This document shows positions 41,820 to 64,000 of a DNA stretch of 64,000 nt, one piece after another. Made by a program: the position numbers and the translations under genes. The first letter of the stretch is position 1, and every line of letters starts with the position of its first letter. The notes beneath the pieces are model-generated. The model made no database searches. It saw nothing but the letters and a program-made list of their open reading frames with translations, and had not been told where the DNA came from. The DNA comes from an uncultured Gemmatimonadales bacterium (lineage in GTDB: Bacteria > Gemmatimonadota > Gemmatimonadetes > Gemmatimonadales > GWC2-71-9): the NCBI GenBank assembly GCA_963771275.1, contig CAVYSW010000003.1, forward strand, positions 1,632,001-1,696,000. The letters run 5' to 3'.

Positions 41820-44800
41820 ATGAGCCGTTGGGCGCGCCTGGCGCTCGCGGTGGTCCTGCTCGCGTTCGGAGCCACGGGGCTCTGGGCACAGGGCACGACT
41901 GGCAAAATCGAGGGGACGGTTACCGACCCCAATGGCCAGCCCGTTGCGGGCGCCCAGGTCATCATCGTCGGCACGGCGGCCGGGGCGGTCACCGGCGGCA
42001 CCGGCTACTACTTCATCAACAACGTGCCGGCCGGCGTGTACACGCTCCGCGCCCAGATGATCGGCTTTTCGCCCAACGAGGTCCGCAACGCGCGCGTGCT
42101 CGCCGAACAGACGCTGACGGTGAACTTCAACCTGTCGACGGCCACGGTCCTCGGGGCGATCAGCGTCACGGTGCAGCAGAACCCGATCGTGCCGCGCGAC
42201 CAGGTGACGTCGAAATCGATCGTCACCGGCAGCGTGGTGAACGACATGCCGGTGGACAACGTGCGTGCGGTGCTGTCGCTCCAGCCGGGCGTGGTGGAGT
42301 CGGGCAAGGGGGACGGGCTGTCGATCCGCGGCGGCCGGGCCGGCGAGGCGGCGGTGTACGTCGACGGCGCGCTGGTGCGGAGCCAGAACACGGGCGGGTC
42401 GCGGCTCACCGTGGGCACGAACGCGCTCGAAGAGGCGTCCGTCACGACCGGCGCGCTCGGCGCCGAGTTCGGCGACGCCCAGTCGGGCGTGATCGCGTAC
42501 GTGACCAAGGCCGGGAGCTCGCAGTTCAGCGGGGCCGCGTCCTACGAGACCGACCAGCCGTTCGGCAAGAGCATCAGCGTCGGTTACAACCGCGGCGAGC
42601 TGTCGATCGGCGGGCCGATCATGAGCAACCTGACGTTCTACCTGTCGGGAACGCTCAACGGCCGGCAGTCGGGCGTCCGGGGGAAGGGCGGGGACGTCAT
42701 CCCCAGCTACGTCCTGGGCGGCCTCGACACGACCGTGATCGAGACCCAGGCGGACGGCAGCACCAAGGCGGTGGACATTCCGCGGTACGTCCAGTTCAGC
42801 GGCGCCTGCGATGCGTCCCTCAACTACGGCTACGAATGCCAGGGGCGCCGCCGGCCGTACAACTGGACGACGAACGCGACGGGCCAGGGCAAGCTGCAGT
42901 ACAGCTACGGCGGCGGCTCCGCGGTGTCGGCCACCGTCCTGTACAGCCAGGACCAGGCGCGCGACTGGAACTCGGGCTTCAACTACCGCCTGATGACCGG
43001 CACCCGCAGCTGGAGCAACGGGTTGATCGCGAACTGGACCCAGCAGGTGTTCCGCGAAGCGGAGCGCGAGCTGGCGTTCGACGTGAACCTGTCCTACCAG
43101 ACGGACCGCAGCATCTCGGGCGAGCTGGCTCCCTCGTACGAGCTGGGGCACCGCGACCCGTTCAACGGGTGGGTGCTCTCGCCGATGCAGTTCCGCGTCG
43201 ACTTCGACCACTTCTCGGACGACACCGCTGGGATGTACGGGCCGGGGAACGATACGCTCGTGGTCACCAGCCTGAACGGGCAGGCCGACTGGGACCGCCT
43301 GGTCCAGAACATCCGGACCAACCAGGGCACCCGGCTGCCGTACTGGAACCGCCAGGATCTGAACACGGGGCAGGCGTACCGCATGAACCCGTGGGCGCTC
43401 ACCACCGGCTACTCCACCGACGGGCTCGGCAACTTCAACTCGACGCTCTACCAGGAGCAGCGGTTCCTCGGCCGGGCCAACGTGGACTGGCAGTTCGACC
43501 GGTACAACCGGCTCAAGCTCGGCGGCGACGTGCAGCGCTCGCGCGTGAACTGGTTCAACTCCGGCGTGATCCGCCAGATCTTCCAGGAGGTCTACAGCGA
43601 GAAGCCGCTGCGCTACGGCGTGTACGGCCAGGACCGGCTCGATCTGGGCGACGTCGTAATCGAGGCCGGGCTGCGGTACGACTACTTCAACACGGGCGCG
43701 TACATCCCGGTGGTGCCGGGGCGCATCTTCACGAACCCGAATTTCAATCCGGCCGACTACCTCAATCCAGCCGACAGCGTGTTCTTCAAGGCCAGCGGTC
43801 ATGGGACCGTGTCGCCGCGCGTGCTGGTGTCGTTCCCGGTGACGGACCGGACCGGCTTCCGCCTGTCCTACTCGCATCAGGTGCAGTCGCCGGACCTGCA
43901 GTCGATCTATCAGGGCATCAACAACGACCTCGCGTTCACCAACACGAACGACAACTTCCCGCGCGACGTCACGTGGGGCAAGACGATCCTGTTCGAGTTC
44001 GGCATCCGGCACGCGTTCAGCCAGGATTTCGTGTTCGACATCTCGGCGTACAACAAGGACAAGGTGTCGGATCTGGCCGCGCGCATCCTGCCGTTCTACG
44101 ATCCCGCGACCCAGAAGATCGCGAACATCAACGTCCTGACCAACGCGGACTTCGGGAACACGCGGGGCGTGGACATGAGCCTGATCAGCCGCGTCGGCGA
44201 CTTCTTCAACGGGACGCTGACCTACACGTATCAGGTGGCCAAGAGCACGGGGACGGATCCGTTCTCGTACTTGAACACCACGTCGCGGGCGACGCTGGCC
44301 GTCACCGGTGAGCGGGTGGACCCGCCGCAGGCGCTGCTGCCGTTCGGCGAGAACCGCACGCACAACATCTCGGGCGCGCTCGCGTTCAGCTTCCCGAACG
44401 ACTTCGCGTCGGGCAGCTGGTACGGCACGGTGCTCAAGAACGGCGGCGCGTTCCTGCGCTTCCGGTTCGCGAGCGGCCTGCCGTTCACCAAGCTGGTCAA
44501 CTCCGGCGCCGGGCAGCGCGCGCCGTTCGAAGCGTGGGGACTCTCGGGCGCGGGTGCGGAGCCGCCGAACAGCTCGACGATGCCGTGGATCAAGGAAATG
44601 GACCTCCGGCTCACCAAGGGTCTCCGGCTCGCGGGCGCGGATTGGACGGTGTTCGCCGACGTCCGCAACCTGCTGAACCTGACGTCGATCACCCAGCTGT
44701 TCATCGAGACGGGAGACGTGGTGAACGCCACCCATCGACAGCTGAACTCGAGCAACGAGGTGTCGCGGCTGGTGGCCGAGGCCGGATCGAACGCGGTGAC

Positions 44801-45044
44801 GCAGAGCGATGGCTCGGTGTCGATCATGCTGCCGGCCACTTGCAGCGGCACGACCTGGCAAGGCGGACCGGTCAACTGCGTGCTGCTGAAGCGCGCCGAG
44901 GCCCGGTTCGGCAATGGCGACGGGACGTTCACCCGCGCCGAGTACATCGCGATGTGGGACGCGGAGTACGACATCTTCAACGGCAAGTACACGTTCTACG
45001 ACGCGCCGCGCAGCATCCGGCTCGGCTTCGAGCTGCGGTTCTAA
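41820..45044 (+). CDS. TonB-dependent receptor with N-terminal carboxypeptidase-regulatory-like domain
   Basis: Signal peptide (LWA-Q); GKIEGTVTD; plug motif SIRGGR..E..VYVDG; AEFGDAQSGVI; amphipathic strands; C-terminal PRSIRLGFELRF. Confidence 0.92.
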   Translation: MSRWARLALAVVLLAFGATGLWAQGTTGKIEGTVTDPNGQPVAGAQVIIVGTAAGAVTGGTGYYFINNVPAGVYTLRAQMIGFSPNEVRNARVLAEQTLTVNFNLSTATVLGAISVTVQQNPIVPRDQVTSKSIVTGSVVNDMPVDNVRAVLSLQPGVVESGKGDGLSIRGGRAGEAAVYVDGALVRSQNTGGSRLTVGTNALEEASVTTGALGAEFGDAQSGVIAYVTKAGSSQFSGAASYETDQPFGKSISVGYNRGELSIGGPIMSNLTFYLSGTLNGRQSGVRGKGGDVIPSYVLGGLDTTVIETQADGSTKAVDIPRYVQFSGACDASLNYGYECQGRRRPYNWTTNATGQGKLQYSYGGGSAVSATVLYSQDQARDWNSGFNYRLMTGTRSWSNGLIANWTQQVFREAERELAFDVNLSYQTDRSISGELAPSYELGHRDPFNGWVLSPMQFRVDFDHFSDDTAGMYGPGNDTLVVTSLNGQADWDRLVQNIRTNQGTRLPYWNRQDLNTGQAYRMNPWALTTGYSTDGLGNFNSTLYQEQRFLGRANVDWQFDRYNRLKLGGDVQRSRVNWFNSGVIRQIFQEVYSEKPLRYGVYGQDRLDLGDVVIEAGLRYDYFNTGAYIPVVPGRIFTNPNFNPADYLNPADSVFFKASGHGTVSPRVLVSFPVTDRTGFRLSYSHQVQSPDLQSIYQGINNDLAFTNTNDNFPRDVTWGKTILFEFGIRHAFSQDFVFDISAYNKDKVSDLAARILPFYDPATQKIANINVLTNADFGNTRGVDMSLISRVGDFFNGTLTYTYQVAKSTGTDPFSYLNTTSRATLAVTGERVDPPQALLPFGENRTHNISGALAFSFPNDFASGSWYGTVLKNGGAFLRFRFASGLPFTKLVNSGAGQRAPFEAWGLSGAGAEPPNSSTMPWIKEMDLRLTKGLRLAGADWTVFADVRNLLNLTSITQLFIETGDVVNATHRQLNSSNEVSRLVAEAGSNAVTQSDGSVSIMLPATCSGTTWQGGPVNCVLLKRAEARFGNGDGTFTRAEYIAMWDAEYDIFNGKYTFYDAPRSIRLGFELRF

Positions 45045-45058
45045 CGGGGAGTCGAGGG

Positions 45059-45088
45059 GGGCGGCGTCCGGACGACCGGGCGCCGCCC
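45059..45088 (+). other. Intercistronic stem-loop
   Basis: GGGCGGCGTCCGG-ACGA-CCGGGCGCCGCCC, 13 bp, no U-tract. Confidence 0.7.
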
Positions 45089-45122
45089 ACGACGATCACC
45101 AGCTCTCGAGGGATTCTGACCT

Positions 45123-48100
45123 ATGCATTCACGCCTGATCAGCCGAGTGACGCGCGCCGTCCTGGTGGGGCTTGCCCTGGCAGTGATCGTGGGGCAGGCG
45201 GCCGCGCGTCCCAAGCCGGGCGCGCGCCAGTCGAGGGGGTTCAACCTCTTCGCGGGAGTCAACGTGAAGATGGTGGTGAACCGCGTTGACTGTAACATCA
45301 ACAACCTTGGCGAAGTGTGCGTCGACCCGACCAACTCGCCGAGCATCCCGGGTGGCTTCTGGCCGCGCGGGACGCCCGACCAGTACATCTTCAACTCCGG
45401 CCTGCAGCTCGCGGGGGTCATCCCGGCCAGCGCGGGCTTCGCGTGGGCCGGCGACACTGTGGGCGCCTACTTCATGGACCCGCGCGGTGACCAGGCCGTG
45501 GGCCGGGGCATCACGCAGACCTTCAGCTCGATCGACCCAGCCGACGCGGCCGCCTGGCCGTACGCCGCGTACGTCCGCGACACCGCGATCTATGCGTCGG
45601 CCCTGATCAACCGCCCCAACGTCTCGCAGCAGGACATGTGGATGCGGGCGTGGGACGGCGACCCGAGCCTCACGACCGGGCGGACCCACCCGATGGGGAT
45701 CCTGGTCGATCAGCGCGGGCTGGCCTGGAACTTCCCGACCGGCAACGAGGACATCCTCTATTTCGTCTACAATTTCATCAACATCACGCCAACCGATCGA
45801 TCCGTCTATCTGGCCAACCTGCCGCCATACCTGGCCAACGACGCCCAGGCGGTGGACGAGATCGTGGCCGTCGGGCAGCGCCTGCACGACGGGGCGGCGA
45901 CCACGCTCGGCGTGACCATTCCGAGCGGCGGGTACCCGATCGACAACATGTACGCCGCGTTCTTCATGGACCCGGACGTCGCCGACGCGAATTTCAACTA
46001 CTCGACGGCGGTGCTGCCGTTCAGCCTGGCCGTGGCGTACGCGAACACCTTCGAGGGGCTCGCCGGCTACCTCTTCCCGCCCGACATCTTCGGCGCGCCG
46101 TTCGCGGCCGCCCAGGGCTTCGTCGGCGTGAAGTACCTCAAGAGCCCGAAGAACCCGGCCACGGGTGAGGAATTCGGTCTCACCATGTTCTCCAACACGC
46201 TCAACTTGGGCACCGGCTTCCCGGACCCGACGGGCGTGATCCAGATGTGGCGCTATCTCTCCGGCAACATCAATACCTCCGCCGGGGACAACCCCTGCAC
46301 GTTCCCCAACCCGATCCAGCGGCGCCTGTGCTACTTGTCGCAGGACCCGGTGGACACGCGCTTCTTCCAGTCGTCGGGTCCGTTCTCGCTCGAGCCCGGC
46401 CAGGTCCAGACGATCGTCGTGGCATACGTCCACGCCGCACCGGTGGCGGCCGCGATCGTGGTCGGCAGCGACCTCAAGCCCGGCATCCCGTCGAGCGGCG
46501 CGCAGTTCGCGGCCGGCGACACCGCCCGGACCGTCGAGCGGGGAACCGGGTGGGTGAGTGCCACTGACGCGAACGGCAACGGCGTGATCGAGCAGCAGGA
46601 AGTCGAGACCGTGCCGCGCTCGCTGCTGTGGAAGTCCCTGGTGGCCCAGGCCGTGTTCGACAACAAGTTCCTGCTGCCGTTCGCCCCGGAGCCCCCGGCG
46701 TTCTTCCTCGTGCCGGGCGACAACCAGGTGACGGTGGTCTGGGAGCCCTCGCCGACCGAGGATACGGGTGATCCGTACTTCGTCGTGGCCGGCGCCCCGA
46801 CGGTGCCCGGCCCGGGTGGCGAGCCCGTGCCCAACCCGCTGTTTGATCCCAACTTCCGCCAGAAGGACGTGGAAGGCTACCGCATCTATCGCGGCCGCAC
46901 GTCCGGCAATCTGGCGCTGATCGCCCAGCTCGACTACGGGACCACCACGTTCGTGGACTACACCGGCGCGATCGACTACGGGCAGTGCGCGCCCGAGCTG
47001 GGCATCGTGGGCCCGAGCAGCACCTGCCCGGTGACGTTCGAGTACCCCGTCACCGAGATCCTGCCGACGACCCTGCATAACGACGTTGGCATCGTCGGCA
47101 ATGTGATTCAGGTCCCGGCCGGCGGTCGCGTGAAGCTGGCCGACGGCTCGGTGTTCGTCGTGAAGGCCGACACCGCGGTCACGGGCGGCAACACCGGCAA
47201 ACCGGCGCTGGACGATACCGGCGTGCCGTTCGCCTTCATTGATCGTGGCGTGATCAACTCGGTGACGTACTTCTATGCCGTCACGGCGTTCGACGTGAAC
47301 TCGCTGCAGTCGGGTCCGTCGTCGCTCGAGTCCCCCCCCATCGCGCGGTCCACGGTGCCACGGGCGTCCTCCAGCCAGCTCGCGCTGGGACAGCTCGGAT
47401 CCGTCAAGCTGCTCGGGGGCGACGACACCGAGCTCGACCCCAACGCCGCGCTGCCGACGATCGACCCGACAACGGGGATCTTCTCCGGGCCGATGCCGCC
47501 GACCGACGGTATCGATCTCGGTCTGGCGGCGTTCATCTCCGAGCTGCTGCCGACCGAAGAGGGCGCGGTCAACGTCACGATCGACTCGATCGTGCCGGGC
47601 TACGCCACGGGGCTGGGGAACGGCGCCGCGGAGACCCCCGTGACGTACTACTTCACCGGCCAGGGGTCCGGTGCTCCCGTCCAGTTCTCACTGGCGGTCC
47701 AGCAGGAGGTCACCAGCGACCTGGGCCACGGCTCGGCCAACTTCCCGGCCACGAACGTGGACTCGGCGCGGGCCTCGCTCTACGGCGGTGCGCAGAGCGC
47801 GTTCCTCGCCGGCAAGGTCTCGGTCACCATTCCGGGCGACTATCGGTTGGCATCGTACGGACGCGCCGCGGCCAATGGTGATCCGGAAGGCGCGTCGGAG
47901 CAGACCGGGCCACGCTGGTGGGCCGGGAGCGACAACGAAAACACCAACCTGCCCAACTCCGGCTACTGCGTGCCGTGGGCCTCCACCTGCGGCGGCGCAA
48001 CGCCGGTGCCGGATGTGACACTCACGGCCGGCAAGCTGCCGGGCGTGGATACGGTGTTCCATCCGTCGGGGTACATCTCGATTCAGAGCGTTCCGGGGCG

Positions 48101-49046
48101 GGACCTCGACGCCGCCTTTGCCGGGGTCGTGCGTGCCGCGGACTTCAGCGTCTACTGGGGTGCCGCAGGCGCGGTGGATTCCGTAATCGACGTGACGCAT
48201 CACGTCCCCGTGCCGTTCTCCACCAAGCTCCGGGCGTCCTGGGGCATTCTCAACGCGTCGGGATTCGCCGGTACGAACCAGGCGCTGACCGACGACCGGC
48301 GCAACGACGTGCTCACATGGGGCGACATCATCTGCGTGGACCCGGTGCCCGCGCTGATGGACGGCACCGGCACGCGCAAGTGCGGTGGCGCGGCGCAGAC
48401 GCCGGCCGTGTTCTCGCAGACCGCCGAGCTCAGCCTCATCGCGCCGCGCTCGTCGGGGGCCACGCAGCCGAACCTGGCCGCGCTCGCCGCATCAGTGGTG
48501 AGCACGCAAGGGTTCATCTTCTATCTCAACGGGCACTTCTTCCTGATGTCGATGGCCAGTCTCCCGGCCTCCGGCACGGTGTGGCATGCCCGGTTCTTCT
48601 CAGGCAACGTCACCGGGTACGCGGCCGACGCGAATTACGGCTTCGTGGGGGACATCCGGCCGCCGGCGGTGCCGGGCCTCAGGGTCGCGATCACGTACTC
48701 GGGATCGAGCCTGAACGACTCGGTGACTACCGACGCGATGCTGGCGAAGGTGCACACGCTGCCGGATCCGTACTACGTCACCAGCAACATGGAGATCACG
48801 ACGCAGCGGAAGGTGCTGAAGTTCGTCAATCTCCCGGCGCAGTGCGTGATCCGCATCTACTCGTTGAGCGGCGTGCTCGTGAACCTGATCGAGCACAACG
48901 ACCCGACGGGCGGCGGCGAGGCTACATGGGGTGTTCGCAACCGGAACAACCAGTTCGTCGCGTCCGGCGTGTACTTCTACCACGTCGAGACGCCCGACGG
49001 GAAGCAGAAGGTGGGCCGGTTCACCGTCGTCAACTACGCCCAGTGA
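45123..49046 (+). CDS. Large secreted protein with FN3-like segments and T9SS-like C-terminal sorting domain
   Basis: Signal peptide; PGDNQVTVVWE, EGYRIYR, YFYAVTAFD; C-terminal VHTLPDPY...KFVNLP..C.IRIYSLSGVLV...W..RN....VASGVYFYHV....K..RF.VV. Confidence 0.82.
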   Translation: MHSRLISRVTRAVLVGLALAVIVGQAAARPKPGARQSRGFNLFAGVNVKMVVNRVDCNINNLGEVCVDPTNSPSIPGGFWPRGTPDQYIFNSGLQLAGVIPASAGFAWAGDTVGAYFMDPRGDQAVGRGITQTFSSIDPADAAAWPYAAYVRDTAIYASALINRPNVSQQDMWMRAWDGDPSLTTGRTHPMGILVDQRGLAWNFPTGNEDILYFVYNFINITPTDRSVYLANLPPYLANDAQAVDEIVAVGQRLHDGAATTLGVTIPSGGYPIDNMYAAFFMDPDVADANFNYSTAVLPFSLAVAYANTFEGLAGYLFPPDIFGAPFAAAQGFVGVKYLKSPKNPATGEEFGLTMFSNTLNLGTGFPDPTGVIQMWRYLSGNINTSAGDNPCTFPNPIQRRLCYLSQDPVDTRFFQSSGPFSLEPGQVQTIVVAYVHAAPVAAAIVVGSDLKPGIPSSGAQFAAGDTARTVERGTGWVSATDANGNGVIEQQEVETVPRSLLWKSLVAQAVFDNKFLLPFAPEPPAFFLVPGDNQVTVVWEPSPTEDTGDPYFVVAGAPTVPGPGGEPVPNPLFDPNFRQKDVEGYRIYRGRTSGNLALIAQLDYGTTTFVDYTGAIDYGQCAPELGIVGPSSTCPVTFEYPVTEILPTTLHNDVGIVGNVIQVPAGGRVKLADGSVFVVKADTAVTGGNTGKPALDDTGVPFAFIDRGVINSVTYFYAVTAFDVNSLQSGPSSLESPPIARSTVPRASSSQLALGQLGSVKLLGGDDTELDPNAALPTIDPTTGIFSGPMPPTDGIDLGLAAFISELLPTEEGAVNVTIDSIVPGYATGLGNGAAETPVTYYFTGQGSGAPVQFSLAVQQEVTSDLGHGSANFPATNVDSARASLYGGAQSAFLAGKVSVTIPGDYRLASYGRAAANGDPEGASEQTGPRWWAGSDNENTNLPNSGYCVPWASTCGGATPVPDVTLTAGKLPGVDTVFHPSGYISIQSVPGRDLDAAFAGVVRAADFSVYWGAAGAVDSVIDVTHHVPVPFSTKLRASWGILNASGFAGTNQALTDDRRNDVLTWGDIICVDPVPALMDGTGTRKCGGAAQTPAVFSQTAELSLIAPRSSGATQPNLAALAASVVSTQGFIFYLNGHFFLMSMASLPASGTVWHARFFSGNVTGYAADANYGFVGDIRPPAVPGLRVAITYSGSSLNDSVTTDAMLAKVHTLPDPYYVTSNMEITTQRKVLKFVNLPAQCVIRIYSLSGVLVNLIEHNDPTGGGEATWGVRNRNNQFVASGVYFYHVETPDGKQKVGRFTVVNYAQ

Positions 49047-49052
49047 TTGACC

Positions 49053-49081
49053 GGGGCGTGGCGGCTCGGCCGCCACGCCCC
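49053..49081 (+). other. Intercistronic stem-loop
   Basis: GGGGCGTGGCGGC-TCG-GCCGCCACGCCCC, perfect 13 bp, no U-tract. Confidence 0.7.
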
Positions 49082-49100
49082 CGCCTCGGAGGCTGACATT

Positions 49101-50258
49101 ATGAATCGATTCCTGAGTGGAGTCCTCGTCGCGGCGCTGGGCGTGACAATGGCGGTGCCGGTTGCGGCACAGACAACGCCGACGACGAACAACACGGCCT
49201 ACGGCACGACCTCGGCCGAATTCCTGCTGCTCGGCGCCGGCGCCCGCGGTGCGGCCCTTGGCGGGTCGTTCGCCGCGATCGCCACCGACGTCGAGGCGCT
49301 GTACTGGAACCCCGGCGGGCTCGCGCAGCTCGAGCGCCCCGGGCTCACCGTCGGCACGTACAGCTACGTGGCCAACACTCGCTACACCTGGGCGGGAATC
49401 GCCTTCCCGATGGGAGGCGGCGCCCGCGCCATCGGCATCCAGGGGGGCAGCTTCGGGTTCTCCGGGCAGCCGATCTACACCCTGGAGAATCCCGAGGGCG
49501 ACGGCACGACGTACAGTGTCCGTGAGACCTTCGTGGGCCTGACCTATGCGCAGAACTTCTCCGACCGCTTCTCGGCGGGGATGACGGCGAAGTTCATCTC
49601 GGACCAGCTGGGCCTCGTGTCCGGTACCGGGTTCGCCCTCGACTTCGGCACCAACTTCCATGCCATGATCGGTCCACGGCCGATCCGCGCGTCGTTCGTG
49701 ATCCAGAACCTCGGTTCCACGATCAAGCACGACGGCCGCGGCCTCGACGTGACGGCCGTCCGGCCGCCGCCCCAGGGGCAGGTGGATCTGCCGCAGGAGC
49801 CGCAGCCGGCGCGCTACCAGACCAAGGACTTCGGGCTGCCGGTCGTGTTCCGCGTCGGTCTCGCCTTCGACTTCATCAGCATGGGGTCGGGACGGGTCAC
49901 GGCGCTCGGTGAGTTCACGCAGCCCAATAACAGCACCGCCTCGGCCAACGGCGGGCTCGAGGCGACGCTGCTCAACGTCGGCGGCACGGGATTCTCCCTG
50001 GCCGCGCGCGGCAGCTACACCTATCAGGCCGACAACAACTTCGACGCCAGCTGCGCGGCAGCCGGGTTCGGCTGCACCGGGACCGGCACGACATTCAGCA
50101 CCAACGTCAGCAGCAAGGATTGGCAGGACGGGCTGGCCCTGGGCGGCGGCGTCGGCTTCCGGTCCCGCAGCGGGTTCGGGCTGATGGTAGACTACGCCTG
50201 GCGGAGCCTGGGTCTGCTGGGTGGGACGAACTTCTTCAGCGCCACGCTGCATTGGTGA
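49101..50258 (+). CDS. porV: PorV/PorQ family outer-membrane beta-barrel
   Basis: Signal peptide; AEFLLLGAGARGAALGG, ALYWNPGGLA, GFALDFG, LPVVFRVG, VDYAW; GGAGG SD before ATG 49101. Confidence 0.85.
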   Translation: MNRFLSGVLVAALGVTMAVPVAAQTTPTTNNTAYGTTSAEFLLLGAGARGAALGGSFAAIATDVEALYWNPGGLAQLERPGLTVGTYSYVANTRYTWAGIAFPMGGGARAIGIQGGSFGFSGQPIYTLENPEGDGTTYSVRETFVGLTYAQNFSDRFSAGMTAKFISDQLGLVSGTGFALDFGTNFHAMIGPRPIRASFVIQNLGSTIKHDGRGLDVTAVRPPPQGQVDLPQEPQPARYQTKDFGLPVVFRVGLAFDFISMGSGRVTALGEFTQPNNSTASANGGLEATLLNVGGTGFSLAARGSYTYQADNNFDASCAAAGFGCTGTGTTFSTNVSSKDWQDGLALGGGVGFRSRSGFGLMVDYAWRSLGLLGGTNFFSATLHW

Positions 50259-50264
50259 GCGCGA

Positions 50265-51693: not shown

Positions 51694-51728
51694 CGAACGA
51701 CACGTCCACTCGAATGAGCGAGGATCGC

Positions 51729-53780: not shown

Positions 53781-53863
53781 GGGCGAAAAGGTCGCGAACG
53801 GTGCGCCGCGGGACAAGCGCCGGGCCGCTTGTGACCCGCCCCGGCCCGTGCTAGTCTAGCCCG

Positions 53864-56399: not shown

Positions 56400-57865
56400 G
56401 GGCCGGCCGCCCTGCGGGCTCCGCGGCGACCGAACCACCGTGGTTTCGCCGCCGTCCGGCTCTGATACAGCAGCACGAGGCCGGCGAGGCCGAACAGGAC
56501 GTTCGCCGTCCACAGAATCCACGGCGGCGCCACCAGGCGGTCCGCCAGCGACTCGCCGGCGATCAGCACGATGTAGTAGAACCCGGTGATCACGAAGCCG
56601 ACGCCGAGCACCAGTCCCAGGCCGCCCCGCGGGAACCGGATGGCGGTCGGCACGCCCACCAGCACGAATACGATGCACGCGACGGCGATCACGTACTTCT
56701 TGTGCACCTCCACCAGGAAGTGGACCGCCCGGACGGCGGATTGGCGCGCCCGGTCCTGATAGGTCCGCAGCTCCGTCGCGCGGAGGTTGGGGCTGCTGCT
56801 CGCCCGCTGGACGCGTGGCACGACGGCGGGCTTCGTGAAGCGCGCCAGACTGTCGTACACCAGCCGCGGCGGCTGCTGGGCCTGCAGCTTGGGCGGCAGC
56901 AGCCACGCGGCCCAGCGCTCGAGCGCGGCGCAGTAGGCGCTGCGTCGCGGCGCGGGCGGCGTGGTGTCGGGCGGCAGGTCGGCGAGCCCCACCAGCGAGC
57001 GCAGTCCGTTGAGTCGCACGGCGGCGGCGCGCCGGCTCGCCAGCACCCCCTCGCGCCGTGCGGCGTCGATCGACTCCTCCATCTCGCAGATGCTCATCTC
57101 GCGGTCGGACTTGTACGGGTCGACCAGCGTGCGCCGCAGCTCGTTGCCCACCCCCCGGACCCGCACCAGGTCGCGCGCAAACGCGACCTGCTGGAACATC
57201 TTGGGGTTCGAGTGGTCAAACTCATGCATGACGCCGGAGAACAGCGTGAGATTCAGGTCCTGCTGGTCTTCCGTCTGGCTGAGGTACCCGCTGTCCGCAT
57301 AGATCACGCGCTTTCGGTCGTTGGCCAGGTCGTAGATCGTCACGTCGTGGAGCGCGTAGCTCGCGCGGTCGATCGTCGAGGCCCGCAGGAAGAACTGACC
57401 GGGTCGCACCTCGTTGATGACCTGCTCCTGGAGGATGAAGGTCGGCTTCTTGCGGTAGATATCCGAGTACAGCGTGCGCAGGCGATGGTTCGAGCGGGGC
57501 AGCACCTGGTCGTTGAACGCGAAGGACACGAGCGTCAGCACCGCGCCGGCCACCAGCAGAGGGCGGAGGACGCGCCACAGGGAAACGCCCCCCGCGCGGA
57601 GCGCCGTGATCTCGCTGTCGCCGGCGAGCCGGCTGACGCTGAACAGCACGGCGACCAGCACGGCGATCGGGAACGACAGGGCGAGGATGAACGGGATCGA
57701 CAGCGCGAACACCTCGACGATCACGCCCACGGGCAGGCCCTTGCCCAGCAGGTCGCCGATGCGCTTGGCGATCTGGTTGAGCAGCATGATGCCCGTCACG
57801 GCGCCGAGCGCGAACGCGAACGGGCCCGCGTGGATGCGGATCAGGTAGCGGCTGAGCAGTGACAT
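56396..57865 (-). CDS. lptF: LPS export ABC permease, LptF/LptG family
   Basis: LSRYLIR, RLAGDSEITALRAGGVS, VEVHKKY.IAVAC.VF.LVG.P, LWTAN. Confidence 0.88.
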   Translation of the reverse strand: MSLLSRYLIRIHAGPFAFALGAVTGIMLLNQIAKRIGDLLGKGLPVGVIVEVFALSIPFILALSFPIAVLVAVLFSVSRLAGDSEITALRAGGVSLWRVLRPLLVAGAVLTLVSFAFNDQVLPRSNHRLRTLYSDIYRKKPTFILQEQVINEVRPGQFFLRASTIDRASYALHDVTIYDLANDRKRVIYADSGYLSQTEDQQDLNLTLFSGVMHEFDHSNPKMFQQVAFARDLVRVRGVGNELRRTLVDPYKSDREMSICEMEESIDAARREGVLASRRAAAVRLNGLRSLVGLADLPPDTTPPAPRRSAYCAALERWAAWLLPPKLQAQQPPRLVYDSLARFTKPAVVPRVQRASSSPNLRATELRTYQDRARQSAVRAVHFLVEVHKKYVIAVACIVFVLVGVPTAIRFPRGGLGLVLGVGFVITGFYYIVLIAGESLADRLVAPPWILWTANVLFGLAGLVLLYQSRTAAKPRWFGRRGARRAAGP

Positions 57866-57885
57866 GGACCCTGCAAGTTATCAGC

Positions 57886-57914
57886 TTGTATGGCCTTGCG
57901 CGGAAAACTATATT
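57886..57914 (+). promoter_or_regulatory. Sigma70-like promoter for the sprA-like gene
   Basis: TTGTAT-17nt-TATATT in the AT-rich divergent intergenic region. Confidence 0.65.
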
Positions 57915-57954
57915 GCGCCTCCTCGCCTCATCCAGGGCGTACCCCCCTCTCCCG

Positions 57955-60900
57955 GTGAACGTGCCGCGCCTCGCTCCCACCGCGCTGCTGATCCTCGCCC
58001 CGCTGCTGGCTCCCGGCAGCGCGGGGGCGCAGGGAGCGGGCGACAGTCTCCCGCGGATCACGCTGCGGCTCGCGGTGCCCCCCCTCAGCGCGCCGCCGAT
58101 GGCGGAGCTGCGGCCGGGCGGCGTGCTCGGTCTCCGGGTCCCGGCCGCGCTGGTGGGGGCCGCGTGGGAGGCGGCGACCCGTCGGCTGATCGCGGCGAAC
58201 CGCGAGGCACGCCGGGAGGCGCCGTGGGAGCCGGTCTTTCCGGAGGCCGAGATCCCGAAGGCGGCACCCCCGCCGCCGCCCTTCGCGCTGAGACCCCCGC
58301 AGCAGGAGGCGCCGCCAACGCCCGGCACGATCGAGGCGCTCGGCCGCTACGCCGATCTCGGCCTGCAGCTCCACGCGCGGTTCGAAATGAAGATGGACCA
58401 GTTCCGCAACCTCCGGTGCACCGCCGCGGACGTGATCAACCCGGTATCGGGGTGCCGGGGCGGGTTCCCGACGCCGTCCCTCGACCAGCAGTTCGACGTG
58501 CGGGCGGGCGGGGTGGTGGGGGACCGCGTGCACGTCAACGTGGACTACGACAGCCAGCGGGAGTTCTCGGCCAACAACGACATCCACGTGTACTACGAGG
58601 GTCTCGAGGACGAGATCCTCCGCCGCGTCGAGGTCGGCAACGTGACGTTCGCCGGACCGGCGTCGCGCTTCATTACCGCCGCGATCCCCGCCAACTCGTT
58701 CGGCGTCCAGGCCGAAGCGCAGCTCGGCGCCTTCGAGTTTCGCTCCATCATCGCCCAGCAGAAGGGCTCGCAGGTCCGCACCCGCGTCTACACGGTCGGG
58801 GAGCAGACCACGGAGCCGGTGGATCGCGAGCTGCGCGATCTCGATTTCGAGGTGGGCCGGTTCTTCTTCGTCGTCAAGCCGAGTCTGGTGCCCGGCTTCC
58901 CGGACGTGGACGTGCTGGCCCTGACGCCCGATCTCGTCCCGGGCGACGTGCGCCCGCAGCAGGTGCGCGTCTACCGGTTGCGCGCGCAGAGCGCGCAGAA
59001 CCCGAACAACCCGAACCTCGGCGGCATCACGGCCGTCGCGCTGCGACCGGACGGGCCCCAGCGGGTCGGGCCGTTCCCCTGGGAGCTGCTCGTCGAGGGC
59101 CGTGACTATTACCTCGATGCGACGGGCCTGTGGTTCGCGCTGGGAACCAGGGTGGGCGACCAGGATTTCCTCGCCGTCTCGTACATCACGGCCTCGGGCG
59201 ACACGGTGGGTACGTACCCCGCGGTGAACGGCACGCTCGACACGCTGGAGCTGATCTACGAGCCCCGCCGCGGGCCCGACGCCGCCACCTACGCCTACGA
59301 GATGCGCAACGTCTACCGGCTCGGCAGCAGCGATCTCAACCGGACGAGCCTGGCCCTGTCCCTGGTCGTGAACGAGTCGGAGCGGCCGCTCGACGGCCGG
59401 GGGACCTACCTCTCGCGGCTCGGGATTGCCCTGGCGTCGGACGAGTCGCGGCTCGACGAGTTCAATCGCGTGTTCCCGCGCGACCGCGACCCGAACCAGG
59501 GCGCCCCGATCCGCGATCTGTTCCTGATCTTCCCCAATCTCCGGCCGTTCGGAGACTCGACCCGGCTGGCGACCGCCGAGCGGAACGACTCGTTGTACCA
59601 GACGCCCACCTACCTGCTGGCGAGTCAGGGGCCGCCGCCCCGGTTCCGGTTGCGGTTGCACTACGACGCCGTCGGAGGCGGAGACCGCGGCACGCTCGCG
59701 CTCGGCGCGCTGCAGATCCGCGAGGGCAGCGAGAAGCTCTATATCGGCAACGAGCAGCTGGTGCGCGGACGGCAGTACCAGATCGACTACGCCGTCGGGC
59801 AGGTGACGTTCATCAACTCCGACTCGCTGTTCCGCGGCCCCACGCAGGTCCGCGCGCAGTTCGAGGAGAACCAGCTGTTCGACGTCGCGCCCAAGAGCAT
59901 TCTGGGACTGTCCTCGACCTACGATTTCGGCGCCCACGGCCGCCTCAACGCCATCGTGCTGAGCCAGCAGGAGAGCAGCGTGCTCACGCGGCCGCAACTG
60001 GGCTTCGAGCCCCAGTCGAATTTCCTGGGCGGGCTCAGCACCGAGCTCGATTTCCGCCCCGACATCGTCACGCGGGCGCTGAACGCCCTGCCGCTCATCT
60101 CCACGTCGGTCCCGTCGCACCTCACGGTGAACGGCGAGATCGCCATGTCGCGGCCCAACCCGAACAAGGCGGGCCAGGCGTATCTCGAGGAGTTCGAGGG
60201 CACCGCCGCCCGCCCGCTCTCCCTCATCGAGAACGCCTGGACGACGGGCAGCCGGCCCGAGTCGGGCCGGGGCCTCGCCCCGCCGTACCTGTCGCCGCTC
60301 GGGGGGTTCGCGGACGCGGATGCGGTGCCCCTGGTGTGGCAGAATGCCATCCAGATCGGGAACCAGGCGCTCCAGTTCGAGCCGCGCGACATCGATTCGA
60401 GCATCGTCCTGACCGGCGCCGCCCGCGAGCTCGAGACGGTACTGTGGCTCTCGCTCAAGCCCGACACGATCGGCGGCGCGCCCGATCCGGTCACCGGGGC
60501 GCCACGCTGGTATCGGCCGCACACCCCCGGCCCCCGCTGGCGCAGCATTGCCCAGTCGCTGGGCGGCAGCGGCCTCGGCATCGATCTGTCGCGCGTGGAA
60601 TACCTCGAGTTCTGGGTGCTCGAGGACGCCGACCGCAAGGCCAAAGGCGACGGCGTCACGCTGCTGTTCGATTTCGGCACGGTGTTCGAGGACGCCGAAG
60701 CGTTCGGACCGGATACGCTGCGTGTGAGCGGCGCGGACACGGCATTCAGCGGCTTCCAGTTCATCGGCCGGGGGAAGCTCGACACCGAACGGGACACGCT
60801 CACCGGCGTGTTCAACGCCACGGTGAACGACGTGGGCGTGCTGACGGACCTCCTCCCCAGCGTGGTGAACGGCGCGACGGGCGAGACGCTCACCAATCTC

Positions 60901-63900
60901 CCGCTGTGCGAGGCGACGCCCGGGACGGGCCTGCCGGTGTTCCCGCTGGGCGACTTGGGGGCGCGTTGCACGCGCCGCAACGGGTTTGCCGACGGCGAGG
61001 ACCTGAACGGCGACGGGCGACTCGACATCACGGTGGGCACCGTGCAGGAGGACGTGTTCCGCTACGTGTTTCCGGTGGGCGACGAGCGGTTCTTCGTGCG
61101 CAACGGCAACACGCTGGTCGACGCCCGCGGCCGGCCGCTGACCTGGCGGCTGTACCGCATCCCGTTCCGCGAGGACACGCTGCAGATCGGCGCCCCGAAC
61201 ATCCGACAGATCCAGGACGTCCGGATCACGGTCGTGGCGCCGGATCGCGGCCCGACCGAGCAGGAAGTGTTCTTCGCGCTGGCGCGCATGGGGTTCGTCG
61301 GGGCGCCCTGGATCAAGCGCGCGGCGACGCCGATCGCCGGGATCAGCGGCTCGCTGGGCGAGCCGCACGGCGAGGTCGTGGCGTCGGTGGTCACGACGGA
61401 AAACGCGGACCTCGGCTACACGCCCCCGCCGGGGGTGGTCAACCAGGCCGACCAGCAGGGCGCCGGCCTGGAGTTCGCCTCGCAGCAGATCAACGAGAAG
61501 TCCCTGCGGCTGCTGGCGCGCGGGCTGCGCGACGGCGAGCGGGCCGAGGCGTTCGTGCGGTTCACCGACGAGGCGGACAAGAACTTCCTGCGCTACGGGA
61601 AGATGCGGGTCTGGGCGCGGGGGCGGGGCCCGGGGTGGGAAGACCGGGACCTCGAGTTCTTCATCAAGGCGGGACGGGACGAGTTCAATTTCTACATGTA
61701 CCGCACGCCAATCCGCTCGGTGGATTGGGTGCCGGAGGTCGTGATCGACCTGCAGCGCTGGCTCGTGCTGCGCGCGCAGATCGAGGCCGCCTTCCTCCGT
61801 GGAGAGCCCCCGTCGGGCGCGGAACAGTGCGGCGGCGACTCCACCGCGTACGTCGCGTGCGACGGGCCGTACGTGGTCCAGGTGCGGAATCCGTCGGTCG
61901 GCCCGCCGAACCTGGCGCGTGTCTCCGAGCTCGCCGTCGGGATCCTGCGCGTGCGCCAGTCGGTCTACATCGACCAGGCCGAACTGTGGGTCGACGACAT
62001 CCGCCTGAGCGACGTGATCGACGACATGGGACTGGCGGGGGCGATCGACGCCCGGCTGCAGGCGGCCGACGTGGCGGACTTCGCGCTCGGCTTCACCACG
62101 CGCGACGCCCGCTTCCAGCAGCTCGGCGAGGCGCCGAGTTACATCACGGACGCGGCGCTGCGGCTGGGCGGGACGTTCCGCCTCGACCGGCTGATCCCCG
62201 GTGGGGGCTTCAGCATTCCCTTCTCCGTGCAATACACCCGGTCGGCGTCCGATCCCTTCTACCTGAACCGCAGCGACGTGCGGGCGGATGTCCTGACCGG
62301 GCTGCGGCGACCGCGCAGCAGCGCGACATCCTACGCCCTCGCCTATCGGCGCATCACGCGCGGCCGCTCCCTGCTCGAGAACCTCCTGGTCGATCCGATC
62401 TCGGTGCAGGCGTCGCTCACGCAGGGCCGCAGCACCACCGAGCTGACCGATGCCTCCACGACGAACCGCCAGGCGCGGATCGACTACAGCAGTGTGCCGC
62501 CCGCGGCGACGGTCCGGGCGGCACCGGGCTTCGTCGTCGCGCTGGTGAACGGCCTGCCGGCGTTCATCCGCAACAGTGAGTTCGCCTCGGCACTGCGCAA
62601 TGCCCGGCTGCGCCTCACCCCGGCGCTGGTGCGCGGCTCGGTCACGCTCACGGATGCCCGGACGGAGCGGTTCGCGTTCCGCGTCCCGGTGGCACTGGCC
62701 GCCGATTCGGCGCTGCAGCCCCTGCGCGGCATCAACGCCACCCTCCGCACCGACGCCGGCATCGACCTCCGGCCATTCCCGACGATGAGCCTGCGGGGGG
62801 ACTACAGCGCCACCCGCGACCTCCAGGACTATGGGGACACGACCACCGTCGGCCGGCTGCTGAAGGTCGCGAGCTCCCGCTTCCTCGGATGGAACGTGGG
62901 GTTCGTGCGCACGAAGACGATGGGGGTCGGGTTCAACGTCTCGCCCGCCCTGGCCAGCTGGTTCCGGCCCCGGTTCGTGTTCGCGGGCCGATCCAGCTTC
63001 AATCGGGATCCCAACAACCAGCTGCCGGTCCGTCTGGAGGGGGACACGGCGGGCGCGTACCGGCTGCCCGAGAGCCTGTCCAATTCCCAACACCAGGAGT
63101 TCGGCGCCACGGTCTCGATCGGCCAGCTCGCGCAGGGGGTGTTCGGGGACTCGAGCTTCGTCAGCCGCCTGTTCCGGCGCATCCAGCCGATCGACGCGCA
63201 GCTCACCCGCGACTTCCGCTCGGGCTTCGATCGACCGACGTTCGACGCCTCCCTGGGCTACCAGCTCGGCCTGGGAGGGCTGGGTGCGTTCCGGGCGCAG
63301 CGCGGCGTGCCGGCCACGTCGGCGGGCGACGGCCGCGGCCGGACGGTCGCCGGCGGCCTGCAGCTGCCGCTCGGTCTCAACGTGCGGCTCAGCTACCGGG
63401 ACCAGCAGAACACGTCGTGGGCGCTGCGGTCCTGGGAGGCCGAGCAGGTCCGATTCGACCAGCGGAGCCGCGAGTGGCCGTCGGGATCCCTGTCGTGGAC
63501 CTACTCGCCGCGCTGGGCCTTGCGCCGGGTCATCTCGATTCTCAGCGCCAACGCGCGCCTCACGCGGTCGTTCTCGTTGACCGAGCAGCCCGGCCTCGCG
63601 GGAGACGAGCCGTCGCGCACCCAGAATACCGCGCGCGCGGTCGCCCCCTCGGTGAGCATCACGTGGATCGGCGGGATCACCACGTCCATGCAGTACTCGC
63701 ACGCGACGAGCGATGCGCTCAATTCCGGCAATACGACGCGACGCGACCAGGAAGACTGGTCGGGCGCCATGAACTTCGGGTTCCGGCTGCCGCGCTCGCT
63801 CATCCGGCTGCGGAACGACATCCGCACGACCCTGTCGGTCAATTCCTCCGTGGTGACGACCTGCCTGCTGCGGGGCGGCACGACCGAGTGCTCCCCCGTA

Positions 63901-64000
63901 TCGGACAGCCGCCGCCGGGCGGTGGACCTGCGGCTCGACACCGGCTTCTCGCCCCAGGTGCGCGGCGGCGCTAGCTTCAGCTACGTGCTGACGGAGCAGC
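57955..64000 (+). CDS. sprA: SprA/Sov-like giant outer-membrane barrel (T9SS translocon homologue), 3' end beyond the window
   Basis: Reading frame open from GTG 57955 (or 57961) to the window end, over 2000 codons, absent from the ORF track. Signal peptide (AGA-Q); G.VGDRVHVNVDYDSQREF, YEGLEDEILRRVEVGNVTF, LGALQIREGSEKL....LVRGRQYQIDYAVGQV, EYLEFWV, EDLNGDG, ELWVDDIRL. Confidence 0.88.
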   Translation, partial: MNVPRLAPTALLILAPLLAPGSAGAQGAGDSLPRITLRLAVPPLSAPPMAELRPGGVLGLRVPAALVGAAWEAATRRLIAANREARREAPWEPVFPEAEIPKAAPPPPPFALRPPQQEAPPTPGTIEALGRYADLGLQLHARFEMKMDQFRNLRCTAADVINPVSGCRGGFPTPSLDQQFDVRAGGVVGDRVHVNVDYDSQREFSANNDIHVYYEGLEDEILRRVEVGNVTFAGPASRFITAAIPANSFGVQAEAQLGAFEFRSIIAQQKGSQVRTRVYTVGEQTTEPVDRELRDLDFEVGRFFFVVKPSLVPGFPDVDVLALTPDLVPGDVRPQQVRVYRLRAQSAQNPNNPNLGGITAVALRPDGPQRVGPFPWELLVEGRDYYLDATGLWFALGTRVGDQDFLAVSYITASGDTVGTYPAVNGTLDTLELIYEPRRGPDAATYAYEMRNVYRLGSSDLNRTSLALSLVVNESERPLDGRGTYLSRLGIALASDESRLDEFNRVFPRDRDPNQGAPIRDLFLIFPNLRPFGDSTRLATAERNDSLYQTPTYLLASQGPPPRFRLRLHYDAVGGGDRGTLALGALQIREGSEKLYIGNEQLVRGRQYQIDYAVGQVTFINSDSLFRGPTQVRAQFEENQLFDVAPKSILGLSSTYDFGAHGRLNAIVLSQQESSVLTRPQLGFEPQSNFLGGLSTELDFRPDIVTRALNALPLISTSVPSHLTVNGEIAMSRPNPNKAGQAYLEEFEGTAARPLSLIENAWTTGSRPESGRGLAPPYLSPLGGFADADAVPLVWQNAIQIGNQALQFEPRDIDSSIVLTGAARELETVLWLSLKPDTIGGAPDPVTGAPRWYRPHTPGPRWRSIAQSLGGSGLGIDLSRVEYLEFWVLEDADRKAKGDGVTLLFDFGTVFEDAEAFGPDTLRVSGADTAFSGFQFIGRGKLDTERDTLTGVFNATVNDVGVLTDLLPSVVNGATGETLTNLPLCEATPGTGLPVFPLGDLGARCTRRNGFADGEDLNGDGRLDITVGTVQEDVFRYVFPVGDERFFVRNGNTLVDARGRPLTWRLYRIPFREDTLQIGAPNIRQIQDVRITVVAPDRGPTEQEVFFALARMGFVGAPWIKRAATPIAGISGSLGEPHGEVVASVVTTENADLGYTPPPGVVNQADQQGAGLEFASQQINEKSLRLLARGLRDGERAEAFVRFTDEADKNFLRYGKMRVWARGRGPGWEDRDLEFFIKAGRDEFNFYMYRTPIRSVDWVPEVVIDLQRWLVLRAQIEAAFLRGEPPSGAEQCGGDSTAYVACDGPYVVQVRNPSVGPPNLARVSELAVGILRVRQSVYIDQAELWVDDIRLSDVIDDMGLAGAIDARLQAADVADFALGFTTRDARFQQLGEAPSYITDAALRLGGTFRLDRLIPGGGFSIPFSVQYTRSASDPFYLNRSDVRADVLTGLRRPRSSATSYALAYRRITRGRSLLENLLVDPISVQASLTQGRSTTELTDASTTNRQARIDYSSVPPAATVRAAPGFVVALVNGLPAFIRNSEFASALRNARLRLTPALVRGSVTLTDARTERFAFRVPVALAADSALQPLRGINATLRTDAGIDLRPFPTMSLRGDYSATRDLQDYGDTTTVGRLLKVASSRFLGWNVGFVRTKTMGVGFNVSPALASWFRPRFVFAGRSSFNRDPNNQLPVRLEGDTAGAYRLPESLSNSQHQEFGATVSIGQLAQGVFGDSSFVSRLFRRIQPIDAQLTRDFRSGFDRPTFDASLGYQLGLGGLGAFRAQRGVPATSAGDGRGRTVAGGLQLPLGLNVRLSYRDQQNTSWALRSWEAEQVRFDQRSREWPSGSLSWTYSPRWALRRVISILSANARLTRSFSLTEQPGLAGDEPSRTQNTARAVAPSVSITWIGGITTSMQYSHATSDALNSGNTTRRDQEDWSGAMNFGFRLPRSLIRLRNDIRTTLSVNSSVVTTCLLRGGTTECSPVSDSRRRAVDLRLDTGFSPQVRGGASFSYVLTEQ

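Follow-up and report, generated by a model that had tools for sequence, protein, structure and literature searches.

The window, that is the whole 64,000-nucleotide stretch analysed here, belongs to a Gemmatimonadales genome that is 96.71% complete and 0.01% contaminated. It carries a gene for the translocon SprA/Sov and an operon encoding a TonB-dependent transporter, a 1307-aa protein with the features of an export cargo, and a PorV-family barrel (Table 1). The initial annotation had suspected a host outside the Bacteroidota, and a Bacteroidota origin was indeed not found: the host is a member of the Gemmatimonadota, as are all the loci retrieved with the PorV query (16/16). The transporter, the GWxTD protein, the PPC lipoprotein, ctaA, the APC permease and lptG/lptF went unnamed in the initial annotation.

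Table 1. Genes and domains in the window, with the evidence for each
Feature	Coordinates	Strand	Basis
TonB-dependent transporter, first triplet gene	41820-45044	+	Pfam PF13620, PF13715, PF07715
1307-aa cargo: signal peptide, supersandwich, FN3, middle region, CTD	45123-49046	+	predicted models, fold searches
T9SS type A-like C-terminal domain (CTD) of cargo	48729-49043	+	TIGR04183 24.5 bits; PorZ/PorU/mirolase fold matches
PorV/PorQ-family barrel, cargo-specific paralogue	49101-50258	+	NF033709 121.5 bits; triplet clade SH-aLRT 100
GWxTD-domain secreted protein	50314-51693	+	TIGR04514 94.1 bits; 3' of porV in 15/16 loci
Predicted lipoprotein, C-terminal PPC domain	51714-52766	+	PF04151; related genes in several loci
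ctaA/COX15, outside system	52872-53816	-	Pfam and profile matches
APC permease, outside system	53864-55237	+	Pfam and profile matches
lptG, outside system	55317-56378	-	Pfam and profile matches
lptF, outside system	56396-57865	-	Pfam and profile matches
sprA/sov translocon gene	57955-64000, continuing to 64080	+	TIGR04189, PDB 6H3I

The sprA frame is open from 57859, and the GTG at 57955 first proposed as its start is plausible. The gene ends 80 nt beyond the window, giving 2073 aa counted from the first start. Its early description as a SprA-like frame of more than 2000 aa is supported at the sequence level, since the predicted product scores 529.5 bits with TIGR04189 (cut-off 200, hmmscan) and matches Flavobacterium johnsoniae SprA (PDB 6H3I) with an E value of 6e-28. 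The protein is about 330-360 aa shorter than the SprA of canonical type IX secretion systems (T9SS), and the listed model matches end near position 1820 of 2319. sprA and lptF point away from each other, and lptF is also its neighbour in 10 of the 12 other sprA loci; downstream of sprA lie an M28 peptidase gene and then pilB. With four unrelated genes and 7.7 kb in between, sprA is transcribed separately from the porV and cargo genes. The idea that SprA, PorV and cargo form one module was therefore abandoned, the more so as the tree places the PorV of the window in a clade of cargo-specific barrels, the porU-type PorV being encoded on another contig.

The transporter-cargo-PorV triplet

The transporter consists of a signal peptide, a CarboxypepD_reg N-domain, a plug and a barrel. 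Of 16 related loci, 12 have its gene upstream of the cargo gene and the remaining four are cut by contig ends; a PorV gene follows 3' of a CTD protein in all 16. The TonB-dependent transporter, the cargo and PorV are a conserved triplet, and a second triplet is present in the same genome. The GWxTD gene is part of the operon, yet independent of SprA; a role of GWxTD proteins as T9SS-specific partners was rejected, the family occurring in 19 of 31 genomes lacking SprA.

The cargo combines a signal peptide, a beta-supersandwich (residues ~43-518), an FN3 domain, an unmatched middle region and a type A-like CTD (~1205-1307). It has no Pfam match, its sequence has no match in the PDB, and only unnamed clusters were returned from the Atlas; of 7999 sequences scored, 1496 were homologues. 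The supersandwich (fold match Z 18.6, rmsd 2.8-3.3, 232-252 residues aligned) has the fold of the N-terminal domains of GH15, GH94 and GH116, with 5-12% identity and matches confined to this domain. Such a predicted fold by itself shows no function, and a GH15, GH94 or GH116 enzyme was rejected, both cargo models being mostly beta without a catalytic helical barrel. The pLDDT was 90.1 on average for the AlphaFold model of residues 700-1307 and 93.7 for the second. The middle region (~745-1200), searched inside the 700-1307 model, gave no fold match.

By sequence, the assignment of the CTD is borderline, with 24.5 bits in the genome search and 19.2 in hmmscan against a TIGR04183 cut-off of 23. 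Among 48,161 chains, the CTD model was closest to PorZ (Z 12.5, rmsd 2.1, 91 aligned), PorU (Z 10.4, rmsd 2.5, 91 aligned) and the mirolase CTD (Z 8.6, rmsd 1.8, 74 aligned), and the predicted fold thus agrees with the type A sorting signal initially proposed. Six CTD-like C-termini were counted in the genome.

The adjacent barrel exceeds the family cut-off of NF033709 (90 bits), which places it in the PorV family as annotated, and stays below the equivalog cut-offs of PorV (44.5/250) and PorQ (67.1/220). Three genes of the genome exceed the family cut-off and none of them passes the PorV equivalog. The phylogenetic tree assigns the PorV of the window to the triplet clade, and the era-linked copy on the other contig clusters with porU-linked PorV. 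In one sister family the copies reach 10-13 per genome. Modelled together, the cargo CTD and the adjacent PorV gave a complex score of 0.85, the best of three controls reaching 0.00, although PorV-CTD complexes have already been solved and this pass may come from the memory of the model. In comparison, 116 of 157 solved pairs and 2 of 215 mismatched pairs attained the mark for this score. Contacts agreed by at least 88% between runs, with a partner pLDDT of at least 82, and the predicted interface is restricted to the CTD, which sits on the PorV loops.

PorZ-PorQ, PorU-PorV and type B CTD cargo with its cognate PorP/SprF shuttles (PMC12618676) resemble this pair in that the cargo is encoded beside, and predicted to remain on, its own barrel; in fold, the cargo CTD comes closest to those of PorZ and PorU, which are not cleaved. 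In contrast to those pairs, a type A-like CTD is here combined with a dedicated PorV-family carrier in an operon led by a TonB-dependent transporter, and the cargo body is unrelated to PorZ and PorU. The gene order also recalls another arrangement. In SusC-SusD uptake pairs, a transporter gene is followed by the gene of a surface partner, with lipoproteins downstream. These pairs are discussed in PMC12611786, and the triplet likewise has a transporter gene, a gene for a putative surface partner and downstream lipoproteins. However, the transporter falls short of the SusC-family cut-off (27 bits against 368 with TIGR04056), and the next gene encodes no SusD lipoprotein but a supersandwich-FN3-CTD protein of 1300 aa predicted to be carried on a PorV barrel.

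Missing components and co-occurrence across the phylum

The closest known system is the T9SS of F. johnsoniae and Porphyromonas gingivalis (SprA/Sov, PorV, GldKLMN/PorKLMN; PDB 6H3I, 8GL6, 8GL8). The shared parts are the SprA orthologue, PorV-family carriers and the type A-like CTD fold; possible further ones are the single Skp-like gene 3' of bamA and a weak SprE-like lipoprotein. Unlike in that system, GldL, GldM, GldN, PorU, PorZ and PorP are not detectable here: profile searches of the whole genome returned no match for GldM, GldL, GldN, PorP or PorU, no C25 peptidase was found in it, and PorZ model matches were limited to three CTDs. For GldK, searched in this genome only, a single locus scored below the cut-off (81.9/350 bits), so that a complete canonical gldKLMN set was not found. 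The early observation that porKLMN, porU and sprE are missing from the window thus extends to the genome for GldL, GldM, GldN and PorU. It may not extend to the accessory parts, the Skp-like gene and a TPR lipoprotein (C6:78205-79560) with a weak match to the SprE/PorW model NF052312 (E 2.5e-5, 23/250 bits) being encoded elsewhere. Among 57 relatives of this lipoprotein, 39 match NF052312 and 50 match YbgF; its PDB matches included no SprE chain, and longer relatives were not found. A single-protein search with it was blank in 5/5 genomes, one of them SprA-positive, and is hence uninformative.

The phylum set comprised 151 genomes, 136 of class Gemmatimonadetes and 15 of sister classes. SprA was above cut-off in 120 of them, 105 within the class, and below it in 31. 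C25/PorU matches are strong in all 15 sister-class genomes (PorU at 572 and 625 bits, cut-off 420) and amount to three weak partial ones in the 136 of the class. The order era-porU-porV is found in all eight loci fetched from family f10, and era-porV in this genome. Because porU is missing from an order that sister classes keep, PorU is taken to have been lost within class Gemmatimonadetes. GldM, GldN and GldL_N gave no match at E<=0.001 in any of the 151 genomes (no positive control matched, so this means not found with these models), and the lack of a detectable motor is, by these searches, phylum-wide. The suggestion of a "reduced or ancestral" route accordingly splits in two: reduction applies to PorU, whereas the absence of a motor is common to PorU-bearing, cargo-rich sister classes.

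An ordinary T9SS, with motor and ring too divergent for Bacteroidota-trained models, is an unlikely explanation. Those models would miss a very divergent motor, a GldK-related protein is present and no positive control matched; other parts are divergent too, PorV scoring far below its equivalog cut-off, and the lipoprotein matching the SprE/PorW model at 23/250 bits, like 39 of its 57 relatives, points the same way. Against this, the three models stayed blank even in sister classes with PorU well above cut-off, the short GldL_N model included, and a search of the 2717 called genes for a GldL motif came back empty.

The components follow SprA, although the genomes are kin and their co-occurrence counts therefore do not represent independent events. 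The PorV family (E<=1e-12) occurs in 118/120 SprA-positive and 6/31 SprA-negative genomes, three of these six matches being weak, and the triplet cargo CTD in 72/120 and 0/31. The era locus of SprA-negative genomes reads era then porV in 3/29; in 11/29 (families f1, f2 and f8), era directly adjoins the downstream GGDEF gene. SprA thus has work beyond the triplet, whose CTD is missing from 48 of the 120 SprA-positive genomes. At least one CTD-type protein was found in 103 of the 105 SprA-positive genomes of the class. SprA-bearing closed genomes devoid of any cargo had been considered, and were rejected once a CTD-only family was found.

It has also been considered that SprA is mainly a relic or has another job, in DNA uptake or with pili, the cargo reaching its barrel otherwise or acting in the periplasm. 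The M28-comEA-pilBTC context downstream of sprA would fit, represented here by the M28 peptidase gene and pilB, and in a sister-class genome by an adjoining comEA, as would the SprA-positive genomes without triplet CTD and the CTD-only genes that outlive sprA. This reading is nevertheless improbable: most of the genomes listed have sprA as an unbroken frame of some 2000 aa, porV, a DUF5683-like gene and the triplet cargo vanish with it, and the modelled CTD site lies on the PorV loops.

A proposed export route and its possible energy sources

The reading preferred here, at a probability of about 0.6, is a working, pared-down type IX export made of SprA and PorV-family carriers, without PorKLMN/GldKLMN and, in the class, without PorU. 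The signal peptide of the 1307-aa protein would direct it across the inner membrane; the protein would then enter SprA, where its CTD would be caught by the neighbouring PorV paralogue, as the modelled binding and the docking known from F. johnsoniae suggest. The carrier-cargo pair would then leave SprA sideways. Since there is no sortase, the CTD would stay uncut and the barrel would keep its cargo at the surface, as PorQ does with PorZ and the PorP/SprF shuttles do with type B cargo. Gene order and fold suggest that it could serve there as a glycan- or polymer-capturing partner of the co-encoded transporter, replacing a SusD lipoprotein. The era-linked PorV might be the general shuttle for a few unlinked cargoes, namely an S8 protease, an M14 carboxypeptidase and the CTD-only protein.

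In the current model, the GldLM motor and ring are required for the release of cargo from SprA, and in F. johnsoniae without the motor the cargo is trapped on the translocon (PMC10994853). Motor-free release consequently needs an explanation, and none was found. The route may, as first suggested, be energised in another way. Release with no dedicated motor is a reasonable possibility, TonB-ExbBD a lesser one and a motor not yet recognised a rather doubtful one; pilus ATPases are most improbable. As a full account, a TonB-energised T9SS is likewise doubtful; in it, TonB-ExbB-ExbD would take the place of GldLM and detach the carrier-cargo pair from SprA, either directly or via the transporter. 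The genome has two MotA/ExbB-family genes, at least three TonB_C proteins and one TonB_2 protein, a TonB-dependent transporter is co-encoded with cargo and carrier, and PMC12419801 describes an FCB operon pairing sprA with two TonB-C genes. However, tonB and exbBD are absent beside sprA and the triplet and reading by eye did not reveal them in the listed sprA loci of six further genomes; transporters and Tol-Pal already account for the TonB/ExbBD genes, and the unlinked cargoes have no partner transporter.

Earlier publications already mention SprA outside the Bacteroidota, as well as gene sets that lack the motor. One such case concerns the 'Incertae sedis' class of Bacteroidetes, which we take to be that of Rhodothermus and Salinibacter. 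A Sov-PorU-PorV-PorQ-PorZ set without PorKLMN is reported there (PMC7323717), which speaks against an overlooked divergent motor. As in the Gemmatimonadota, translocon and carriers are present and the recognised motor and ring are missing; unlike there, the phylum differs and the class studied here also lacks PorU and PorZ. No passage on non-Bacteroidota hosts was found in the excerpts available of PMC10515386 or PMC5445135. More tentatively, the Gemmatimonadota may represent the oldest type IX export, in which SprA loads cargo-specific PorV barrels, release is motor-free or TonB-powered, DUF5683-like and CTD-only proteins are helpers, and the main product is a new uptake machine, an exported 140-kDa protein on its own barrel capping a transporter; in that case, the Bacteroidota would have added the Gld motor afterwards.

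A phylum that keeps and loses SprA, PorV and cargo together, with no motor seen, offers a direct test of the motor's role and of whether it arose later. The parts list of the class is minimal (no PorU, about six cargoes) and hence suited to reconstitution. Class Gemmatimonadetes has cultured members. In soil and sediment, where these bacteria are abundant, the triplet may provide a means of uptake other than SusCD that has so far escaped study. A protein labelled X had no meaningful match in the PDB. Two new leads emerged besides. The DUF5683-like gene, co-lost with sprA, was found in 69/120 SprA-positive genomes, with at most 14 candidates scored per genome and misses possible, and was rejected as a universal part. 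The class-wide CTD-only protein is encoded in 98/105 SprA-positive genomes of the class and, as a strict partner of SprA, is not supported, being kept in 15/31 SprA-negative ones.

Identity and arrangement of the translocon, carrier and cargo genes

The window, C3:1632001-1696000, lies in an uncultured Gemmatimonadales genome (G000; 3.86 Mb in 11 contigs, 96.71% complete, 0.01% contaminated), and its GC content is even (0.67-0.77). The initial annotation had placed here a SprA-like frame, a PorV-family barrel and a 1307-aa cargo with a type IX secretion system (T9SS) C-terminal sorting domain (CTD), in a host outside the Bacteroidota, and these identifications were borne out. The large frame extends 80 nt past the window end, and its product scores 529.5 bits on the SprA model (cut-off 200) and matches Flavobacterium johnsoniae SprA (E 6e-28). 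The porV-like gene lies over the PorV/PorQ family cut-off (121.5 against 90 bits) and under both equivalog cut-offs (PorV, PorQ). By sequence the tail of the cargo is a borderline CTD (24.5 or 19.2 bits, cut-off 23); its predicted fold superposes on T9SS CTDs, with PorZ (Z 12.5), PorU (Z 10.4) and the mirolase CTD (Z 8.6) leading 48,161 chains, and Foldseek likewise places PorZ and PorU at the top. One NCBI homologue of the cargo is already labelled 'T9SS type A sorting domain-containing protein'. A search with PorV as the query recovered 16 loci, every one from Gemmatimonadota and most from Gemmatimonadales. In four genomes of one genus (G062, G131, G087, G098), SprA reaches 818-1251 bits on TIGR04189, compared with roughly 530 in G000, so that the model seed may already include a Gemmatimonadota protein.

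The range 41820..64000, annotated at first as one SprA-PorV-CTD module, is two units: an operon-like run and sprA. The run comprises genes for a TonB-dependent transporter, the cargo and the PorV-like barrel (together the triplet), followed by a GWxTD gene and a PPC lipoprotein. A CTD protein stands ahead of porV in 16/16 related loci, the transporter ahead of the cargo in 12 (contig ends cut the other four), and a GWxTD gene after porV in 15. The single module did not hold, since sprA is divergent from lptF and four genes (ctaA, a permease gene, lptG/lptF) separate it from the operon. In genome G056, about 0.8 Mb lies between triplet and sprA. Among 12 other loci, lptF flanks sprA in 10. The triplet is present also in family f7 and in the sister classes, and G000 has a second copy. 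The two-frame transporter and cargo copies in the table may stem from decay or assembly error. GWxTD-domain genes number 10 in G000, the highest of 62 genomes searched, several with TPRs or a C-terminal Ig-like domain, and a ComEA-type gene follows sprA in a sister-class genome.

Coordinates of the features in G000 (C, contig; L, extracted locus with local numbering; plain numbers, window)
Feature	Coordinates	Description
TonB-dependent transporter	41820-45044	First gene of triplet
CTD cargo	45123-49046	Second gene of triplet
porV-like gene	49101-50258	Third gene of triplet
sprA	57955 to past window end	Plausible GTG start
Second triplet	L035:3382-15411 (C3:407378-419410); triplet copy C3:410864-419410	1393-aa cargo; then small beta-barrel protein and two lipoproteins; divergent GWxTD gene
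Paralogue of window transporter	L036:5196-8323 (C11)	Two overlapping frames, no cargo behind
Copy of second cargo	L037:8051-11072 (C6 end)	Split over two frames, no porV behind
Weak PorV-family barrel	L039:5180-8392 (C3:395176-398391)	41/90 bits; directly 3' of a 746-aa lipoprotein in which no CTD was detected
Genes after sprA	L034:8078-12753	M28 peptidase at once after sprA, then pilB, then pilT- and pilC-like genes (by sequence reading)
SprE/PorW-like TPR lipoprotein	L151:6209-7561 (C6:78205-79560)	451 aa, much shorter than the 716-position model
X	L038:6670-7509 (C10, after era-linked porV)	Secreted and DUF5683-like; found behind porV in every class
CTD-only protein	L117:7233-7661 (C10:287232-287660)	142 aa; signal peptide and type A-like CTD alone; single copy

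Motor, ring and sortase genes, and release from SprA

The apparent lack of motor, ring and sortase genes, remarked on at first for the window, extends to the whole genome: profile searches of G000 gave no match to GldM, GldL (two models), GldN, peptidase C25 or PorP, one GldK locus at 81.9/350 bits (in a search of this genome alone), and PorZ-model matches confined to three CTDs. In a single phylum sample of 151 genomes (82 genera, 12 families, each at least 90% complete), GldM, GldN and GldL_N were not found with these models, which have no positive control because 0/14 control genomes carry these families over cut-off. A TPR lipoprotein weakly resembles SprE/PorW (23/250 bits); of its 57 relatives, 39 match the SprE/PorW model and 50 match YbgF. 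The one Skp-like gene directly follows bamA.

In the F. johnsoniae T9SS, as described in PMC10994853, the CTD is bound by PorV loops inside SprA, and extraction of the carrier-cargo pair costs energy. The cargo CTD would load onto PorV inside SprA in the same manner, and the cargo may be left uncleaved, kept on its cognate barrel beside the co-encoded transporter. Such retention would resemble that of type B cargo with its dedicated shuttles (described in PMC12618676). Release from SprA without a dedicated motor is the favoured reading, with a probability of about 40%. Power from TonB is somewhat less likely. Two genes of the ExbB/TolQ family and several for TonB proteins are present in G000, none of them adjoining sprA; PMC12419801 describes an FCB operon joining sprA with TonB-C genes. 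An unrecognised motor ranks just below TonB, and release by the neighbouring pilus ATPases is very improbable.

Distribution across the phylum and probable loss of PorU

SprA is over cut-off in 120 of the 151 genomes. The PorV family (E<=1e-12) occurs in 118 of these against 6 of the 31 SprA-negative genomes (three of the six weak), and the triplet-type CTD in 72 against none; related genomes are not independent in such counts, though losses spread over several families. Triplet-type CTDs number 1-5 per genome in class Gemmatimonadetes and 14-40 in the sister classes (families f10-f12), where 4-13 PorV-family genes occur per genome and CTD proteins are often in cargo-porV pairs. In the class, a CTD-only gene is found in 98/105 SprA-positive and 15/31 SprA-negative genomes (113/136 in all, five unlisted misses being deduced from family tallies); with it included, 103/105 SprA-positive genomes have a CTD protein. 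The era gene was located in 29 SprA-negative genomes: porV follows it in three, all drafts of 40-210 contigs, a GGDEF gene directly in 11 and about 1.2 kb on in two; in the other 13, some of them truncated at contig ends, a 1.5-kb span shows neither gene. X, labelled DUF5683-like from the Atlas (30-40% of cluster members), is present in 69/120 SprA-positive against 1/31 SprA-negative genomes, thus disappearing along with sprA, and is a candidate unrecognised T9SS part. Several genera have sprA and the triplet without X. GWxTD was rejected as a SprA-tied family, being also in 19/31 SprA-negative genomes.

The SprA-PorV-CTD system is real, phylum-wide and coherent, and probably works like a T9SS translocon-carrier route. 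It shares translocon and carriers with the canonical T9SS but differs in motor, ring and sortase. The route is partly anticipated in print: PMC11285876 states that T9SS may occur in Gemmatimonadetes and other FCB phyla, PMC12398890 terms it FCB-specific, and PMC7323717 reports one class with Sov, PorU, PorV, PorQ and PorZ but without PorKLMN. Another account (10.1101/031039) gives T9SS in Bacteroidetes only, Gemmatimonadetes being absent from its figure. Full-text searches, with subscription journals mostly outside their coverage, found no study that treats this system in Gemmatimonadota, the triplet, or DUF5683 in connection with T9SS.

Strong C25 matches occur in 15/15 genomes of f10-f12, and the two proteins tested both exceed the PorU cut-off (572 and 625 against 420); the 136 genomes of class Gemmatimonadetes yield three weak partial matches. 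Among loci selected from short PorV matches, the order is era-porU-porV-X in 8/8 extracted from f10, porU-porV-X in 6/6 from f11/f12, and era-porV-X in G000 and five other genomes; one further locus has era-porV but no X, and in another porV-X lies at the end of a contig. From this distribution and gene order, PorU was most likely lost within the class. The initial description of the system as reduced or ancestral therefore stands, as reduction, for PorU; the lack of a motor would not be part of the same reduction and would predate it, because the sister classes, rich in cargo and equipped with PorU, likewise show no motor in the searches. Families f10-f12 provide the strongest case of heavy export, as their gene content suggests, without the known motor. 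A PorV tree of 45 rows from a quick search (rows under 260 aa excluded) separates 21 triplet PorVs from 24 linked to porU or era, with SH-aLRT 100, with sister-class rows on both sides, which points to the window PorV as an old cargo-specific paralogue.

The cargo and other CTD proteins

Cargo residues 29-760 (pLDDT 93.7, alignment of 70 rows) are predicted to form a beta-supersandwich, the fold of the N-terminal domains of GH15, GH94 and GH116 (best Z 18.6, rmsd 2.8-3.3, 232-252 aligned, 6-9% identity), and then an FN3 domain (Z about 11.5). No catalytic barrel follows, and an enzyme of these types was rejected. The cargo may be a glycan-binding or scaffold protein, a role that the fold itself does not show. 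For the proposed PorV:CTD pairing, residues 700-1307 of the cargo were modelled together with the window PorV, scoring 0.85 against 0.00 for the best of three controls, on a mark passed by 116/157 solved and 2/215 mismatched pairs; this pass may reflect known structures, because PorV-CTD complexes are already solved. The runs have 88% or more of their contacts in common, the partner has a pLDDT of 82 or higher, and every confident contact falls on the CTD.

An iterated CTD profile finds six CTD-like C-termini genome-wide in G000: the two triplet cargoes, the frame-split copy, an S8 protease, an M14 carboxypeptidase and the CTD-only protein beside clpB. The latter gene sits upstream of clpB in the three other genomes checked; possible roles of its product are placeholder cargo, plug and periplasmic factor.
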